This document shows, piece by piece, positions 365-49,237 of a stretch of DNA of 64,000 bases (the stretch's first letter is position 1; each line of letters starts with the position of its first letter). This stretch comes from Escherichia coli (lineage in GTDB: Bacteria; Pseudomonadota; Gammaproteobacteria; Enterobacterales; Enterobacteriaceae): the NCBI RefSeq assembly GCF_002854065.1, contig NZ_CP024147.1, one strand, 5' to 3'. The notes beneath the pieces are model-generated. The model saw nothing but the letters and a program-made list of their open reading frames with translations. It was not told the origin of the DNA and did no database searches. A program made the position numbers and the translations under genes.

Positions 365-441
365 GCGCCCTTAGCTCAGTTGGATAGAGCAACGACCTTC
401 TAAGTCGTGGGCCGCAGGTTCGAATCCTGCAGGGCGCGCCA
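365..441 (+). tRNA. argU: tRNA-Arg (anticodon UCU), argU; integration target of the prophage
   Basis: 77-nt sequence GCGCCCTTAGCTCAGTTGGATAGAGCAACGACCTTCTAAGTCGTGGGCCGCAGGTTCGAATCCTGCAGGGCGCGCCA with cloverleaf arms and UCU anticodon; 3' 45 nt repeated at 16895-16939. Confidence 0.92.
397..441. repeat. attL core: 45-bp direct repeat (3' end of argU) marking the left prophage junction
   Basis: Identical to 16895-16939. Confidence 0.85.
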
Positions 442-2953: not shown

Positions 2954-3090
2954 TGTTTGAGTTTTATATGGCAGAACTTCTTCGCCACCGCTGGGGGCAT
3001 CTGCGCTTATATCGTTTCCCCGGTTCTGTTTTGACCGATTACCGAATACTGAAGAGTTACGCCAAAACCCTGACAGGAGCAGGAGTATGA
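2950..3090 (+). CDS. ylcG: Small prophage protein YlcG (46 aa)
   Basis: ATG overlapping rusA stop; translates [46 protein letters not shown]; below the ORF-track size cutoff. Confidence 0.6.
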
Positions 3091-3175
3091 AGTCAGAGAT
3101 AACAATCAACTAATACTGTTTTGTTGATTTTTGCTTGTAATTGGCGTTTTGGTCTGATTTTTGTGGAGTAAGTTG

Positions 3176-3559
3176 ATGCGTGATATTCAGATGGTTCTTG
3201 AGCGTTGGGGAGCGTGGGCGGCTAATAATCATGAAGATGTGACCTGGTCGTCCATTGCCGCCGGTTTTAAGGGATTAATTCCTTCAAAAGTAAAATCTCG
3301 CCCGCAATGTTGTGACGATGACGCGATGATCATTTGCGGGTGCATGGCCCGTCTGAAAAAGAACAACAGCGATTTGCACGATTTATTAGTAGATTATTAT
3401 ATAGTCGGTATGACATTCATGTCACTGGCAGGTAAGCATTGCTGCTCTGATGGTTATATCGGGAAAAGGTTACAAAAGGCTGAGGGCATAATTGAAGGGA
3501 TGTTAATGGCATTAGATATCCGGTTAGAGATGGATATCGTTGTTAATAACTCTAATTAA
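3176..3559 (+). CDS. quuD: Late-gene antiterminator Q (QuuD-like, 127 aa)
   Basis: [24 protein letters not shown]... matches remembered DLP12 QuuD; start taken at second Met of the track ORF. Confidence 0.85.
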
Positions 3560-3584
3560 TACGCCAATTATTTACTAAAAGTTA

Positions 3585-3622
3585 TTAAAAATGGGGCGTT
3601 GAAGCGCCCCCAAAAATAAAGG
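3585..3622. terminator. Bidirectional rho-independent terminator between quuD and nmpC
   Basis: GC hairpin GGGGCG-ttgaa-GCGCCCC flanked by A-run upstream and A/T-run downstream. Confidence 0.5.
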
Positions 3623-3747
3623 GTAATATATAACAGAAGGTTTGTATAGTTAGAAGCAAGGTTGTGCTTCTAAAGGAAGTGGCTTGAGGGAGCCACTTAT
3701 ATGTTGGGGAGGCAAAGCCTCCCACAACATATCTTTTAGTAATCAAA

Positions 3748-4830
3748 TTAGAACTGGTAAACCATACCTACAGCAACGATATCATCGGTAGCAACGCCAG
3801 ATGCTTTCGTGAAATCGCTCTTATCAATCAGGTTGATTTTGTAGTCAACAAAAGTGGACATATTTTTGTTGAAGTAATAGGTTGCACCTACATCAACATA
3901 TTCAACCAGGTCCTGATCACCCCAAACACCCAAGTCTTTTCCTTTAGAATGCAGGTAAGCAACGGATGGACGCAGGCCGAAGTCGAACTGATATTGTGCA
4001 ACAGCTTCGAAGTTTTGTGCTTTGTTGGCAATATGGTTATTACCAAAAACAGTCATGTTCTGGGTTTCAGAATAGGTGGTGGCCAGATAGATGTTGTTCG
4101 CATCATATTTCAGACCAGCTGCCCATACTTCAGCATTTTGACCAGAAGCATTCAGACCGTTGTTACCGTAGATAACCTGATTATTAGTGCGATCAGATTT
4201 AGCATAGGTTGCACCCACGCCGAATCCTTCATACTCATAAGTAGTTGAGAAACCGAAACCATCGCCATTAGCTTCAGTTACTTCATTTCGGTCATTTTTG
4301 CCCTGATACTGAGCTGCAAAGTTCAGGCCATCAACCAGACCAAAGAAGTCGTTGTTACGATAAGTTGCAACACCTGTGGTGCGACCAGTCATGAACACAT
4401 CTGTTTGGGTCCAGGTATCGCCACCGAATTCTGGCAGAACGTCAGTCCACGCACCGATGTCGTATGCTACACCGTAGTTACGGCCGTAATCGATTGAGCC
4501 GTAGTCACCGAATTTCAGGCCAGCGAAGGCAAGACGGGTTTTATCTTTGGAGGAACCTTGAGATTCAGCGCGGTTGCCTTTGAATTCATATTCCCACTGA
4601 CCGAAACCAGTCAGTTGATCGTTGATTTGGGTTTCACCTTTGAAGCCAAGACGGGCATAAGTAGTATCACCATCATCTGCATCATTAGAGGAGAAGTAGT
4701 GCTTAGCATTAACTTTCCCGTACAGATCCAGCTTGTTACTGTCTTTATTATAAATTTCAGCTGCCTGAGCAGACATCGCCATCAGTACTGATGCAGCTAC
4801 AGCAGAAATTGCCACTGTTAATTTTTTCAT
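3748..4830 (-). CDS. nmpC: Outer-membrane general porin NmpC/OmpD-like, apparently intact (360 aa)
   Basis: Signal peptide [23 protein letters not shown], porin beta-barrel sequence ending in C-terminal F; uninterrupted here (K-12 copy carries IS5). Confidence 0.9.
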
Positions 4831-5258
4831 CGTGAGCCCTTTTTTTTGAACTATTATTAAAAAATGATGTCACTGCGCGATAAATATTCATCTAATCAAT
4901 GTGATTATTTCAAGATGTAAGTTTTGGTTTCTCGTTTAATTTGTGAAGTAGATCTCTATTTTTATCTGAACTTTTTTCTATCGAATCCTATTCATGGCTC
5001 TTGGCTGAATAAAAATAAATCTATTAGCCAATTTATATTAATGGCTGTTATTTATAAGTGCTCTATAATTTGAAGGTTCAATTTAAATTGGCTAAAAATA
5101 ACGCTGGAAATTATTTGTTGGTTATTTGTTGAGATTTTCTTATGTATTTGTAGTGGTGTTTTCAATACTCGGTAGCATTCTCGCAAATATCATTTAGTGG
5201 TTTACGTACGTAAAAAATTGGTTATGCTGTTAAGAGTGGTTACTTCGTTACACAGCTT

Positions 5259-5291
5259 AAACCCGCCGTCGAGCGGGTTTTTCCATTTTTT
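5259..5291 (+). terminator. tR'-like terminator in the late leader upstream of the lysis genes (Q antitermination target region)
   Basis: Hairpin AACCCGC-cgtcga-GCGGGTT followed by TTTTCCATTTTTT. Confidence 0.45.
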
Positions 5292-5403
5292 GAGTCTCGA
5301 TATTAGCTGATAACCCAATACCTGAGTTATTCACTGACTCCGAGTCTGTTACGTTTCGTAGTATTCCCTCAATTTACACCCGCTTTGTCTGCGAGGTGGG
5401 GTT

Positions 5404-5619
5404 ATGAAATCCATGGATAAGTTAACAACGGGTGTCGCCTATGGCACCTCAGCAGGTAGTGCCGGGTACTGGTTTTTACAGCTGCTCGATAAAGTCACGC
5501 CCTCACAGTGGGCAGCAATAGGTGTGCTGGGTAGCCTGGTATTTGGCCTGCTGACGTACCTGACAAACCTTTATTTCAAGATTAAAGAAGATAAGCGCAA
5601 GGCTGCGAGAGGTGAATAA
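5404..5619 (+). CDS. essD: Phage holin (EssD-like, 71 aa)
   Basis: 71 aa with hydrophobic TM segments and charged C-terminus; first gene of lysis cassette. Confidence 0.9.
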
Positions 5620-6116
5620 TGCCTCCATCATTACGAAAAGCTGTTGCTGCTGCTATTGGTGGCGGGGCTATTGCTATAGCATCTGTGTTAATCACTGGCC
5701 CAAGTGGTAACGATGGTCTGGAAGGTGTGAGACATAATCCTTACAAAGACATAGTTGGTGTATGGACTGTATGTTACGGGCATACAGGAAAAGACATCAT
5801 TCCCGGTAAAACGTATACCGAAGCAGAGTGCAAAGCCCTCCTGAATAAAGACCTTGCCACTGTCGCCAGACAAATTAACCGGTACATCAAAGTCGATATA
5901 CCGGAAACAACGCGCGGCGCTCTTTACTCGTTCGTCTACAACGTGGGTGCTGGCAATTTCAGAACATCGACGCTTCTTCGCAAAATAAACCAGGGTGATA
6001 TTAAAGGCGCATGTGATCAGCTACGGCGCTGGACATACGCTGGCGGTAATCAATGGAAAGGACTGATGACTCGCCGTGAGATTGAGCGTGAAGTCTGTTT
6101 GTGGGGGAAACAATGA
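5619..6116 (+). CDS. rrrD: SAR endolysin / lysozyme (RrrD-like, 165 aa)
   Basis: N-terminal signal-anchor-release segment [18 protein letters not shown] followed by lysozyme domain; ATGA overlap with holin stop. Confidence 0.9.
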
Positions 6117-6571
6117 GCAGAGTAACCGCGATTATCTCCGCTCTGGTTATCTGCATCATCGTCTGCCTGTCATTGGCTGTTAATCATTACCGTGATAACG
6201 CAATCGCCTACAAAGAGCAGCGCGATAACAAGGCCAGTGAACTGGAGAAGGCGAACGCCACCATCGCTGACATGCGGAAGCGTCAACGTGATGTAGCAGA
6301 ACTCGACGCAAGATACACAAAGGAGCTTGCTGATGCTAACGCGACTATCGAAAGTCTCCGTGCTGATGTTTCTGCTGGGCGTAAGCGCCTGCAAGTCGCC
6401 GCCACCTGTGCAAAGTCAACGACCGGAGCCAGCGGCATGGGCGATGGAGAAAGCCCAGGACTTACAGCAGATGCTGAACTCAATTATTACCGTCTCCGAA
6501 GTGGAATCGACAAGATAACCGCGCAGGTTAACTACCTGCAGGAATACATCAGGACGCAATGCCTGAAATAA
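6113..6571 (+). CDS. rzpD: Spanin inner-membrane subunit Rz (i-spanin)
   Basis: N-terminal TM helix then coiled-coil-rich periplasmic domain; ATGA overlap with endolysin; diverges from K-12 RzpD. Confidence 0.85.
6327..6518 (+). CDS. rzoD: Spanin outer-membrane lipoprotein Rz1 (o-spanin), embedded in the +1 frame of Rz
   Basis: Lipobox LLGVSAC followed by proline-rich segment [13 protein letters not shown]; wholly inside Rz in another frame; exact start uncertain. Confidence 0.7.
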
Positions 6572-6602
6572 TTTTTTTGCAAATCACAAAGTCCATTTAA
6601 TG

Positions 6603-6628
6603 AGCCTCGCGATGCGGGGCTTTTTTTA
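6603..6628 (+). terminator. Rho-independent terminator after the lysis cassette
   Basis: Hairpin CCTCGC-gat-GCGGGG followed by CTTTTTTT. Confidence 0.5.
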
Positions 6629-6866
6629 CATCTGAATTTCACAGCGCATCTCACGCGCATATTACATCACCCGAGCCTTTCAGAAAGTTGAGCCTGAGAA
6701 CTGCCGTATATGGTGGCGACCATCTCGGGGCGGCTTTTCTGTGAGACAGGCTCACTTTCTAAAAGGTAAAGACGCTATGAACCAATTAGAAGAAAAGCTT
6801 CAAAGAATGATTTCCTTATACAAGGAAGATAACTGCCAAAAAGTTCCTTAAAACATCGCAGAGTTA

Positions 6867-7265
6867 ATGGAATTGGCAAGTGAATTTTCTGGCATGCTTA
6901 AGTCGTCAGGTGTTCGGTCAGCGTTCTTTGTTGAAATGCTGATGCACGGCGGACTTATGGCAACAATGAGACGTGTAATGGAAGACCAGAGAAAAGAACC
7001 TCCTCAGGTATACGTTTTGTCATCGAAGAAAACTGGGCTAACCAAAATTGGGTATTCATCCAACATTCCACAACGCATCAAATCGCTTGGCAACTCTGGA
7101 CCAGACTGCTTGAAGCTTGAGTGCCTGATCCCTGGTGGAAGAGAAACTGAAAACATGCTTCATCGCAAATTTGCCGCAAAGAGAAAGCACGGTGAATGGT
7201 TCGCCCTGTCCAAGGATGACATTGAGGGATTGAAATCTGTAGCGATTACTTCTGATGGCTATTAA
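6867..7265 (+). CDS. T5orf172 / GIY-YIG-like domain protein (132 aa), prophage accessory gene
   Basis: Motif block VYVLSSKKTGLTKIGYSSNIPQRIKSL...ENMLHRKFAAKRKHGEWFAL resembles the T5orf172 (MUG113) fold; N-terminal 45 aa unassigned. Confidence 0.5.
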   Translation: MELASEFSGMLKSSGVRSAFFVEMLMHGGLMATMRRVMEDQRKEPPQVYVLSSKKTGLTKIGYSSNIPQRIKSLGNSGPDCLKLECLIPGGRETENMLHRKFAAKRKHGEWFALSKDDIEGLKSVAITSDGY

Positions 7266-7943
7266 TGCTTGTTTAGAGCAATTTTCATAACAACTCTTCA
7301 TTACAAAGCCCATCTACTGGTGGGCTTGATAATGAAACCGTGATTTACATCCCCACAATCCGGGTATGTAAAAGATAGTTCAGGCGAGAACGGATTTAAC
7401 TAAATCTGTGCGCCACCAGTTAACGGCAGTACCACGAAACAACCCAAGCCAGTAAGTGGGGAAATAACACCGGCAGCCACTGAAAGATGAACCTCCTGCC
7501 TTATGGCAAAAAAGATTCTTTGTGGTGGCGGACTGATGGAAAGACATCCTAATTTCAGCCAAACATTGAAGGAGTTGTTATGTCAGCAGAAGGTTTCAAT
7601 AACCCATCAAAATTCCGGGATGAGTGGGATAGCAGCGTAAAGAGTAAGTGATGCCATCACAAAAGCCATTCCCTACAGAGTGGCTTTGATAATGGCTTAT
7701 ACCCTACACGGGATAACTTAACTGATATCCTTTTTAAAGGATAAAGGTATTCAAGCCTGACACATCATGCGCTGTATCGTCGCCGTATTCCCGTATTAAC
7801 AGAGACCGTAGCCCGACGGGGAACTCCTTCTGCGCGAGTGTGCGGGAATAATCAAAAACGATGCACACCGGGGTTACCGGGTACACATATTTCATCATGC
7901 CAGCGAGTCCGGTTCTGGCACGGAAGAAACCGGACGTTATGAT

Positions 7944-8354
7944 TTAGTGCGGAAATATTTGTGTAGTGTTCTGAATGTTCTCAGTAAAGAGTAATGAATT
8001 ATCAAAGGTATAGTAATACCTTTTGTTTTCGTGGATATTTGTAATCCATCTGAAAACCCCTGCTGTAGCAAGATTTTTCCTGTATTCGTAAAATGATAAC
8101 TCTCCTGATTTGAATCCTTTTAATGTGGTTTCTATAAGGCATTTATTTTTTGAAAATCTTACATTTACAACCTTACCCTGTCCTTTTATTAAAACCGTAT
8201 TATCGTTTTCAAGAACAAGATGAATATTCTCTGTGGCTAAATAGTAAATGTAATGTGAGACATTGTGACGTTTTAGTTCAGAATAAAACCAGTGATAGTT
8301 TAAATTATTTCGCACTTTATCGAATATTTGTTTAAAAATGGCAACCTGAGCCAT
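7944..8354 (-). CDS. Uncharacterised AT-rich prophage protein (136 aa from second Met; possibly YbcV-like)
   Basis: ORF in low-GC segment; length and position relative to the cos/nu1 region resemble DLP12 ybcV; no motif recognised. Confidence 0.45.
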
Positions 8355-8411
8355 TGTAGTACCTTCCATGTGATATGAAGGTACCTAGTCTGCACGATTA
8401 TCTAAATTGCT

Positions 8412-8645
8412 TCAATCTGGTCTGACCTGCTTTCTGAGCAATTCAGTAATGTCACTCTTTTCTTTGTTTGCTTCAGGCGAAACTCTTTTTTCTGAGCACA
8501 GTCTTCGGCGGCAGGCTTCAATGACCCAGGCTGAGAAATTCCCGGACCCTTTTTGATCAAGAGCGATGTTAATTTGTTCAATCATTTGGTTAGGAAAGCG
8601 GATGTTGCGGGTTGTTGTTCTGCGGGTTCTGTTCTTCGTTGACAT
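8412..8645 (-). CDS. Small ribbon-helix-helix-type DNA-binding protein (YlcI/DUF3950-like, 77 aa)
   Basis: Basic N-terminus then NIRFPNQMIEQINIALDQKGSGNFSAWVIEACRRRL, consistent with RHH/Arc-like fold; adjacent to cos as ylcI is in DLP12. Confidence 0.5.
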   Translation of the reverse strand: MSTKNRTRRTTTRNIRFPNQMIEQINIALDQKGSGNFSAWVIEACRRRLCSEKRVSPEANKEKSDITELLRKQVRPD

Positions 8646-8689
8646 GAGGTTGTCCCGTATTCAGTGTCGCTGATTTGTATTGTCTGAAG

Positions 8690-9000
8690 TTGTTTTTACG
8701 TTAAGTTGATGCAGATCAATTAATATGATACCTGCGTCATAATTGATTATTTGACGTGGTTTGATGGCGTAGATGCACGTTGTGACATGCAGATGATAAT
8801 TATTATCATTTTGCGGGTCCTTTCCGGCGATCCGACAGGTTACGGGGCGGCGACCTCGCGGGTTTTCGCTATTTATGAAAATTTTCCGGTTTAAGGCGTT
8901 TCCGTTCTTCTTCGTCGTAACTTAATGTTTTTATTTAAAATACCCCCTGAAAAGAAAGGAAACGACAGGTGCTGAAAACGAACTTTTGGGCCTTTGTCGT
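8690..9000 (+). other. Lambda-type cohesive-end site (cosQ - cosN - cosB); cosN 12-nt overhang sequence GGGCGGCGACCT at about 8845-8856
   Basis: Near-identity to the joined right and left ends of phage lambda as I recall them (…CCGACAGGTTACG|GGGCGGCGACCTCGCGGGTTTTCGCTATTTATGAAAATTTTCCGGTTTAAGGCGTTTCCGTTCTTCTTCGTC…) directly upstream of nu1. Confidence 0.8.
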
Positions 9001-9033
9001 TTCCTTTCTCTGTTTTTGGCCGTGGAATGAACA

Positions 9034-48103: not shown

Positions 48104-49237
48104 ATGTCATCACTGAATATTAAACAGGGAAGTGACGCTCATTTTCCCGATTATCCTCTGGCGTCGCCCAGTAATAATGAAATTGATTTACTTAATCTAA
48201 TCTCAGTTTTATGGCGGGCCAAAAAAACGGTCATGGCGGTCGTTTTTGCGTTTGCCTGTGCAGTCTTGCTGATCTCTTTCATCCTGCCGCAAAAATGGAC
48301 CAGCGCGGCGGTTGTCACGCCTCCAGAACCTGTTCAGTGGCAAGAGTTGGAGAAAACATTCACTAAGCTTCGTGTGCTGGATCTGGATATCAAAATTGAT
48401 CGTACAGAAGCATTTAACCTGTTTATCAAGAAGTTTCAGTCGGTTAGCTTGCTGGAAGAGTACCTGCGTTCATCACCTTATGTGATGGACCAATTAAAAG
48501 AGGCGAAAATCGACGAACTGGATTTGCATCGCGCAATTGTCGCATTGAGCGAAAAAATGAAAGCGGTTGATGACAATGCCAGTAAGAAAAAAGATGAACC
48601 GTCACTGTATACCTCCTGGACGCTAAGTTTTACCGCGCCAACCAGTGAAGAGGCGCAGACCGTTTTGAGCGGGTATATCGATTATATCTCTGCGTTGGTG
48701 GTGAAAGAGTCGATAGAAAACGTCCGTAATAAACTGGAGATCAAAACCCAGTTTGAAAAAGAAAAACTGGCTCAGGACCGCATTAAAATGAAAAATCAAC
48801 TTGATGCAAACATTCAGCGCCTCAATTATTCACTCGACATTGCCAACGCGGCAGGAATTAAAAAGCCCGTTTACAGTAATGGTCAGGCCGTTAAAGATGA
48901 CCCCGATTTCTCTATTTCTCTCGGCGCAGACGGTATTGAACGCAAACTGGAAATTGAAAAAGCGGTCACTGACGTTGCGGAACTGAACGGTGAATTACGT
49001 AATCGTCAGTATCTTGTTGAGCAGTTAACAAAAGCAAATATCAACGATGTGAATTTTACGCCGTTTAAATATCAGTTAAGCCCGTCATTGCCAGTGAAAA
49101 AAGACGGTCCGGGTAAGGCGATTATTGTGATCCTTTCCGCGCTGATCGGCGGGATGGTGGCTTGTGGTAGCGTGTTATTGCGCTATGCGATGGCATCCAG
49201 AAAACAGGATGCCATGATGGCAGACCACTTAGTTTAA
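48104..49237 (+). CDS. fepE: Polysaccharide co-polymerase FepE (O-antigen very-long-chain length regulator, 377 aa)
   Basis: Wzz-type topology: N- and C-terminal TM segments with periplasmic coiled-coil. Confidence 0.9.
   Translation: MSSLNIKQGSDAHFPDYPLASPSNNEIDLLNLISVLWRAKKTVMAVVFAFACAVLLISFILPQKWTSAAVVTPPEPVQWQELEKTFTKLRVLDLDIKIDRTEAFNLFIKKFQSVSLLEEYLRSSPYVMDQLKEAKIDELDLHRAIVALSEKMKAVDDNASKKKDEPSLYTSWTLSFTAPTSEEAQTVLSGYIDYISALVVKESIENVRNKLEIKTQFEKEKLAQDRIKMKNQLDANIQRLNYSLDIANAAGIKKPVYSNGQAVKDDPDFSISLGADGIERKLEIEKAVTDVAELNGELRNRQYLVEQLTKANINDVNFTPFKYQLSPSLPVKKDGPGKAIIVILSALIGGMVACGSVLLRYAMASRKQDAMMADHLV

Follow-up and report, generated by a model that had tools for sequence, protein, structure and literature searches.

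The 64-kb window, by which we mean the whole stretch of Escherichia coli DNA that was analysed, carries near its start a lambdoid defective prophage integrated at the tRNA-Arg gene argU. This gene lies at 365–441 (+ strand), as annotated in the near-identical strain 100416 and in K-12. An exact repeat search places attL, the 45-bp 3′ end of argU (397–441, + strand), at the left edge of the prophage and attR, a second copy of the same 45 bp (16895–16939, + strand), at its right edge, and these perfect repeats enclose an element of 16.5 kb. Strain 100416 matches a probe covering 8300–9700 at 100% and differs from the window at 4 positions across the window's first 11.8 kb; the gene order was read from the annotation of that strain and compared with K-12. 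The integrase gene intD (457–1620, − strand) adjoins argU and is followed by a very short early region, rusA, quuD, a porin gene and the cluster essD-rrrD-Rz. After Rz come a GIY-YIG gene, a ybcV-like gene, ylcI, the cos site, a truncated Nu1 gene (Nu1′) and tail-gene fragments, and beyond these tfa, a methyltransferase gene, appY, ompT and envY. Integration at argU, an adjacent intD, the att repeats and the order rusA-quuD-porin-essD-rrrD-Rz…cos-nohD…tfa-appY-ompT-envY are the features that mark membership in the DLP12 group, and all of them are present. K-12 DLP12 (qsr′), with its cos-nohD region, is the closest known relative: it shares the argU site, intD, the order essD-rrrD-Rz…ylcI-cos-Nu1 homologue…appY-ompT-envY and the loss of the large terminase and head genes.

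The variant in the window is much more reduced than its K-12 counterpart, at 16.5 kb versus 21.3 kb. Its early region between intD and rusA (1620–2600) holds only small ORFs and pseudogene fragments over ~1 kb, whereas the longer early region of K-12 DLP12 spans ~7.4 kb (2980–10370 in the compared record) and includes IS3, emrE and ybcK-ybcO. The prophage porin gene (nmpC/ompC-like, 3748–4830, − strand) is intact, in contrast to the K-12 DLP12 pseudogene, in which nmpC is broken by IS5, and a ybcY-like SAM methyltransferase gene (10874–11542, − strand) is likewise intact here and a pseudogene in K-12 DLP12. An ORF of the GIY-YIG nuclease family (6867–7265, + strand) takes the place that bor holds in lambda and K-12 DLP12, with Rz on one side and the ybcV-like gene on the other; its PADLOC match to PDC-S57, a candidate defence family, is weak (E = 4e-6). 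An IS1 copy (11853–12620, transposase ORF 12102–12605) with a 9-bp target duplication, GCTTATTCA, is absent from strain 100416. A promoter and terminator scan of 8300–9900 returned counts equal to the shuffle expectation.

The preliminary description had placed the cos site in a prophage lacking large terminase and head genes, and the searches bear this out. Queried by tblastn against the 64 kb, lambda gpA, gpW and residues 1–260 of the portal protein gpB give no matches, the RefSeq annotation of strain 100416 lists no head genes, and Nu1 is the sole terminase or head query with a match in the window. An ORF at 7944–8369 (− strand) was considered as a head gene through its PHROGs assignment (phrog_413, 'head protein') and rejected; it is the DUF1398/YbcV moron gene, which lambda too has upstream of cos.

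The single Nu1 match belongs to an ORF of 274 aa (9034–9858, + strand) that starts at the Nu1 ATG at 9034, encodes Nu1 residues 1–141 without the C-terminal 40 residues, and continues in frame into gpV, the major tail protein, of which it keeps the C-terminal Ig-like part. PGAP represents the same DNA as a pseudogene (partial terminase small subunit) and a separate Ig-like protein. The Nu1::V junction thus reflects one deletion that took A, all head genes and the first tail genes, extending from Nu1 codon 142 into gene V. K-12 DLP12 differs at this point: its nohD is full-length, and a gpA fragment (aaaD) comes after it. Relative to lambda, Nu1 1–141 carries three substitutions (K48R, A75T, L132I), none of them in the recognition helix (residues 17–24) or the wing (residues 31–39); both elements are identical to lambda, and the DNA-binding domain encoded next to cos is therefore of lambda specificity. 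Among neighbouring ORFs submitted to PADLOC, the Nu1 N-terminus gives a generic HTH match only (mad1, residues 1–55). The junction DNA is lineage-restricted, occurring in 1 of 5426 complete E. coli genomes, and the exact fusion protein is found on 69 public contigs, including Shigella dysenteriae.

Immediately upstream lies a complete lambda-type cos site spanning 8815–9009. The 12-mer GGGCGGCGACCT occurs as a single copy within the 64-kb window (8845–8856, + strand), and with a chance expectation of 0.27 at up to one mismatch it is not significant by itself; the identity of the site is settled by the homology of the flanking sequence rather than by the 12-mer alone. Alignment of 8640–9060 with phage lambda (PV340536.1) gives 19 mismatches over 419 columns without an internal gap. 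The lambda right end, cosN and the R and IHF elements of cosB are nearly unchanged, as had been proposed: the gap-free alignment of 8690–9000 contains 17 substitutions in 311 bp, 11 of them 5′ of cosN, and 10 of these 11 are also 5′ of cosQ.

Subsite boundaries come from the definitions of Murialdo and Feiss 2022 (PMC9026076) and of Feiss et al. 2015 (PMC4669245), and from repeats that can be seen in the sequence itself. The leftmost segment, 8690–8814 (+ strand), is the homologue of the non-coding lambda right end (lambda 48348–48472); no role in packaging is known for it, and 10 of the 17 substitutions fall there. The cosQ sequence GGGTCCT (8815–8821, + strand) is identical to that of lambda, and its exact 7-bp position we take to be lambda 48473–48479; whatever the exact bounds, all of lambda 48472–48485 is identical in the window. 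This element, a packaging termination signal (PMC4669245), sits at the lambda distance 5′ of cosN with no indels between the two and one spacer substitution (lambda 48486, T to C) that is common to PhiR26_1, K-12 DLP12 and O157 prophages. The 16-bp cosN CGGGGCGGCGACCTCG (8843–8858, + strand; 16-bp definition as in PMC9026076) matches lambda at 16/16 positions. It comprises GGGCGGCGACCT and 2 bp beside each nick, with the CG dinucleotides conserved at both nicks, and the sequence predicts a top-strand nick at 8844/8845 and a bottom-strand nick at 8856/8857.

The right half of the site is equally well preserved. The spacer between cosN and R3 (I2, 8859–8893, + strand) is identical to lambda and of equal length, so the critical cosN–R3 spacing, which is required (PMC9026076, PMC4669245), is kept. 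R3 (8894–8909, + strand; lambda bp 50–65), the TerS binding site that is critical, matches lambda throughout; bp 56, 58 and 59, which matter for TerS recognition (PMC9026076), are among the identical bases. The core of the I1 IHF site, AATAAAAACATTA (8923–8935, − strand), was located by a consensus scan, fits 8 of the 9 specified IHF consensus positions and is unchanged from lambda. R2, which reads AGAAAGGAAACGACAG on the + strand (8953–8968, − strand), is identical to lambda and inverted with respect to R3 and R1. R1, TTGTCGTTTCCTTTCT (8994–9009, + strand), carries one change, C to T in its first and outermost base at 8994, a base shared with PhiR26_1; it extends 9 bp past position 9000, where the preliminary description ended. 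The order R3-I1-R2-R1 with an inverted R2 is that of lambda cosB (PMC9026076, PMC4669245). All remaining differences between cosQ and the Nu1 start, at lambda 48486, 73, 102, 134, 138, 144 and 175, fall in spacers, and four substitutions lie between R2 and R1. Lambda coordinates past 137 follow the numbering of PV340536.1, in which the Nu1 ATG is at 190, versus 191 classically; the shift corresponds to a known correction, by one G, that was made near bp 138 to the lambda sequence as first published. Exact alignment to lambda cos, which the preliminary description had proposed as a check, finds no mismatch in cosN, R3 or R2, and because these three are identical to lambda its reading of the site stands at the very elements where mismatches would have counted against it. 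Judged by sequence, the site is complete and of lambda packaging specificity, and is probably still cuttable.

A natural counterpart of this cos is found in a deposited phage. Escherichia phage PhiR26_1 (PV340555.1) has a cos that matches positions 8791–9036 (246 bp) with 100% identity; the packaging module of this phage is complete (Nu1-A-W-B), and its Nu1 and gpA match lambda at 180/181 and 639/641 residues. The exact sequence in the window is therefore the cos of a phage with an essentially lambda terminase. GenBank lists PhiR26_1 as a complete phage genome and MG1655 as its host, the infectious status of the phage being that given by this record, and full-text literature searches found no published description of the PhiR phages. 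The variant bases recur in other natural copies, including full prophages of O157:H7 and ST131 that carry a large terminase gene. Across 360 bp around cos, the window shows 3 differences from PhiR26_1 and 12 from K-12 DLP12, a pattern that fits repeated exchange between remnants and active phages. K-12 DLP12 carries changes in R3 (bp 53) and I1 (bp 85), whereas the window copy does not. The intact sequence is probably owed to recency and repeated recombination with active lambdoid phages, not to a host function.

A lambda-type cos in a DLP12 remnant is an already known and ordinary feature, represented in K-12 by the cos-nohD region of DLP12. With a 247-bp cos probe, whose retrieval is biased towards copies that retain cos, 4590 of 5426 complete E. 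coli genomes have a lambda-type cos, with a median of 2 and a maximum of 8 matches per genome, and cos divergence across remnants is at most about 5%. Some of the matched copies belong to full prophages and others to terminase-less remnants with differing deletion junctions. In K-12 DLP12, nohD is followed by an A′ fragment and then tfaD; in K-12 Qin, nohA is followed by a tail-protein fragment; in AR_0369, where cos is 100% identical to that of the window, Nu1′ is followed by a J′ fragment. Qin and AR_0369 resemble the window in that their lambda-type cos is complete and tail-gene fragments directly follow the Nu1 homologue, and differ from it in their chromosomal sites and in their junctions. 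Some E. coli genomes match the probe at positions 5–100 only, which cover cosQ, cosN and the spacer and end just before R3; such matches would fit a lambda-like cosQ/cosN with another cosB specificity, as in phage 21.

We consider it very probable, on the sequence as it stands, that the intact cos of this DLP12-type (qsr′) lambdoid defective prophage at argU would be cut with the help of a phage of lambda specificity. Left to itself, the resident site should be inert because the prophage makes no terminase. During growth of a lambda-specificity phage in the cell, terminase from that phage and IHF from the host would assemble on R3-I1-R2 and nick cosN, and nicking would produce a staggered double-strand break in the chromosome with 12-nt 5′ overhangs. 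Terminase would then hold the cosB side of the break, and the cosQ side would be exposed to exonucleases. Translocation towards appY-ompT-nfr-cus-ent could begin and would not properly finish, yielding at most defective single-cos filled heads. Realistically, the site would become a hotspot for recombination in its neighbourhood, and the prophage would offer incoming phages its alleles of cos, nu1 and the lysis genes through marker rescue and mosaicism.

Published work on lambda and its relatives provides strong precedent for the cutting step. Terminase supplied in trans both initiates and terminates packaging at the chromosomal cos of passive prophages, with yields of ~0.7–2 phage per cell, and helper packaging of passive prophages is a routine published assay (PMC4669245). 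Lambda recombinants that carry the nu1 of K-12 DLP12 are viable (De Paepe et al. 2014, PMC3945230), and from the position of this marker they must also carry the DLP12 cos. Recombinants between lambda and DLP12 are ~100-fold more frequent than those with the Rac and Qin prophages, 10 of 19 lambda–DLP12 junctions lie right at cos, and the authors suggest that double-strand breaks at the lambda and DLP12 cos sites might stimulate recombination (PMC3945230). By analogy, terminase cutting of the chromosomal copy by a helper is plausible, as is chromosome cutting with stimulated recombination; transduction of cus and ent is not plausible. Fisher and Feiss (Virology 1980) reportedly obtained cos+ revertants of a lambda cos mutant via recombination with this cryptic prophage, and Murialdo (1988) is said to have tied the lethality of terminase in rec− cells to chromosomal cos sites.

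A site with an intact sequence might still be an inert fossil if chromosomal context, topology or occupancy blocked its cleavage. One R1 base and four bases of the R2–R1 spacer do differ from lambda, and cutting of this particular copy is a prediction. We nevertheless judge such inertness unlikely, as a phage with a lambda terminase carries the identical sequence, helper terminase uses the chromosomal cos of passive prophages (PMC4669245), and the K-12 DLP12 cos works in lambda (PMC3945230).

The site is oriented such that packaging would run from cosN through cosB towards increasing coordinates, along a route through appY, ompT, envY, nfrAB, cusSRCFBA and pheP to entD, fepA, fes, entF and onwards, of which ~48.5 kb would take in cusSRCFBA and most of ent/fep. 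A complete initiation site, this orientation and this reach are what one would look for if a superinfecting lambda-like phage packaged and transduced appY, ompT, nfr, cus and ent/fep at meaningful frequency, in a cos-type lateral transduction. For a lambda-type terminase to complete a particle, however, it must reach another cosQ-cosN, equally oriented and about a genome length away (PMC4669245, PMC6687093), and uncut DNA prevents the joining of tails (PMC6687093). This second cos can serve at 75–105% of genome length in the same orientation, and a mature particle carrying cus and ent DNA would need one 38–51 kb downstream. We searched the whole window on both strands for the 16-bp cosN at up to 4 mismatches. 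In the 55 kb downstream there is no cosN-like site with fewer than 3 mismatches in its 16 bp, and the only 3-mismatch site is 54 kb away, beyond packaging range. Between 38 and 51 kb downstream there is no second cos; the sites with 3–4 mismatches in the window are at chance level and lack cosQ. Packaging could therefore not finish properly.

Heads filled from a single cos do have a precedent. Excision-defective lambda prophages yielded filled heads containing prophage and host DNA (Sternberg and Weisberg 1975, as a passage of PMC8008629 relates it), and these lambda 'doc' particles, like passive-prophage helper packaging, parallel what would happen here in that terminase acts in trans on a chromosomal cos and proceeds in one direction, from cosN to cosB (PMC4669245 and the same passage of PMC8008629). 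Productive helper packaging, though, uses two cos sites a genome length apart, as in tandem prophages; the window has one, and only the defective single-cos outcome would be open to it. Single-cos particles become infectious only after DNase trimming and the addition of tails. Transduction that starts in situ at a prophage packaging site and moves in one direction into host genes is a property of pac-type phages (PMC8008629, PMC6687093), but their lateral transduction depends on cutting by the headful mechanism, which is not how lambda-type terminases work (PMC6687093, PMC12829572). Reviews describe cos phages as being without generalized or lateral transduction, since they need a second cos for cutting (PMC6687093, PMC12829572). 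We therefore hold transduction of these neighbours at meaningful frequency to be quite improbable. The helper route of the preliminary description divides accordingly: a complete site, lambda specificity, a suitable orientation and the published use of chromosomal cos sites argue, by analogy, for the cutting part, whereas productive packaging and transduction of the adjacent cus and ent DNA finds no support, as it needs a second cos and none suitable lies in the 55 kb downstream.

An element that has intact intD, perfect 45-bp att repeats and a complete cos but brings neither packaging nor head genes also recalls the cos-type PICIs of E. coli, chromosomal islands with an integrase and a lambda-like cosN that lack their own terminase and depend on a lambda-like helper (PMC9026076). 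On such a reading, the prophage would be a helper-dependent satellite, PICI-like or cosmid-like, that keeps cos for packaging of the 16.5-kb island. PICIs, however, excise, replicate and carry Rpp (PMC9026076), and the element in the window does none of these. Its annotation lists only a DUF4222 gene, a TraR/DksA-family gene and two pseudogene fragments between intD and rusA, with no replication module, intact excisionase or Rpp-like gene. Its cosB is the helper's own lambda type, and the cosB proposed for PICIs has a wholly different sequence (PMC9026076). A 16.5-kb monomer is far below the cos-to-cos length that lambda needs (Feiss and Siegele 1979, as cited in a passage of PMC6687093), and in K-12 no DLP12 excision was seen upon lambda infection (De Paepe et al., PMC3945230). 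Excision would thus be no remedy for the missing second cos, because the element has no replication module and the monomer is far too short between cos cuts. The satellite reading was rejected for want of a replication module, Rpp and a distinct cosB, and we give it almost no credence. Equally remote is the idea that cos, with or without Nu1(1–141)::gpV, hinders lambdoid phages, whether by titrating terminase as a decoy, by serving as a suicide cut site, or through a shortened TerS able to bind cosB or to poison terminase assembly. The fusion ORF is open, keeps the full DNA-binding domain while missing the C-terminal 40 residues, lies in late-operon position downstream of the late lysis genes and recurs as an exact protein on 69 public contigs, but it is a predicted ORF with a generic HTH (mad1, residues 1–55) as its only PADLOC match, lambda grows well on K-12, which bears two such cos sites (DLP12 and Qin), and a junction present in 1 of 5426 complete genomes is a rare, lineage-restricted allele that resembles decay rather than selected design.

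None of the satellite, decoy or defence, and inert-fossil readings has positive support. It is very unlikely, in our estimate, that the chromosomal cos is used at appreciable frequency, be it through one-ended packaging of cus, ent and fep with delivery of the DNA or through interference with the helper terminase assisted by Nu1(1–141)::gpV, as a prophage-relic defence. If true, one-ended packaging would be a cos-phage analogue of lateral transduction, and only a demonstrated one-ended packaging with transfer of cus and ent would alter current views, as cos phages are held not to transduce laterally.

The preferred reading, a resident cos that a lambda-specificity helper would cut, places this copy among the cos sites of cryptic prophages, a known reservoir of cos, terminase and lysis alleles for lambdoid phages and suggested sites of terminase breaks. 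The copy described here adds one allele, the same as that of a deposited phage, and one deletion junction, and little beyond correct annotation. Since nearly every E. coli has at least one such cos, these sites are part of the background from which phage mosaicism arises.
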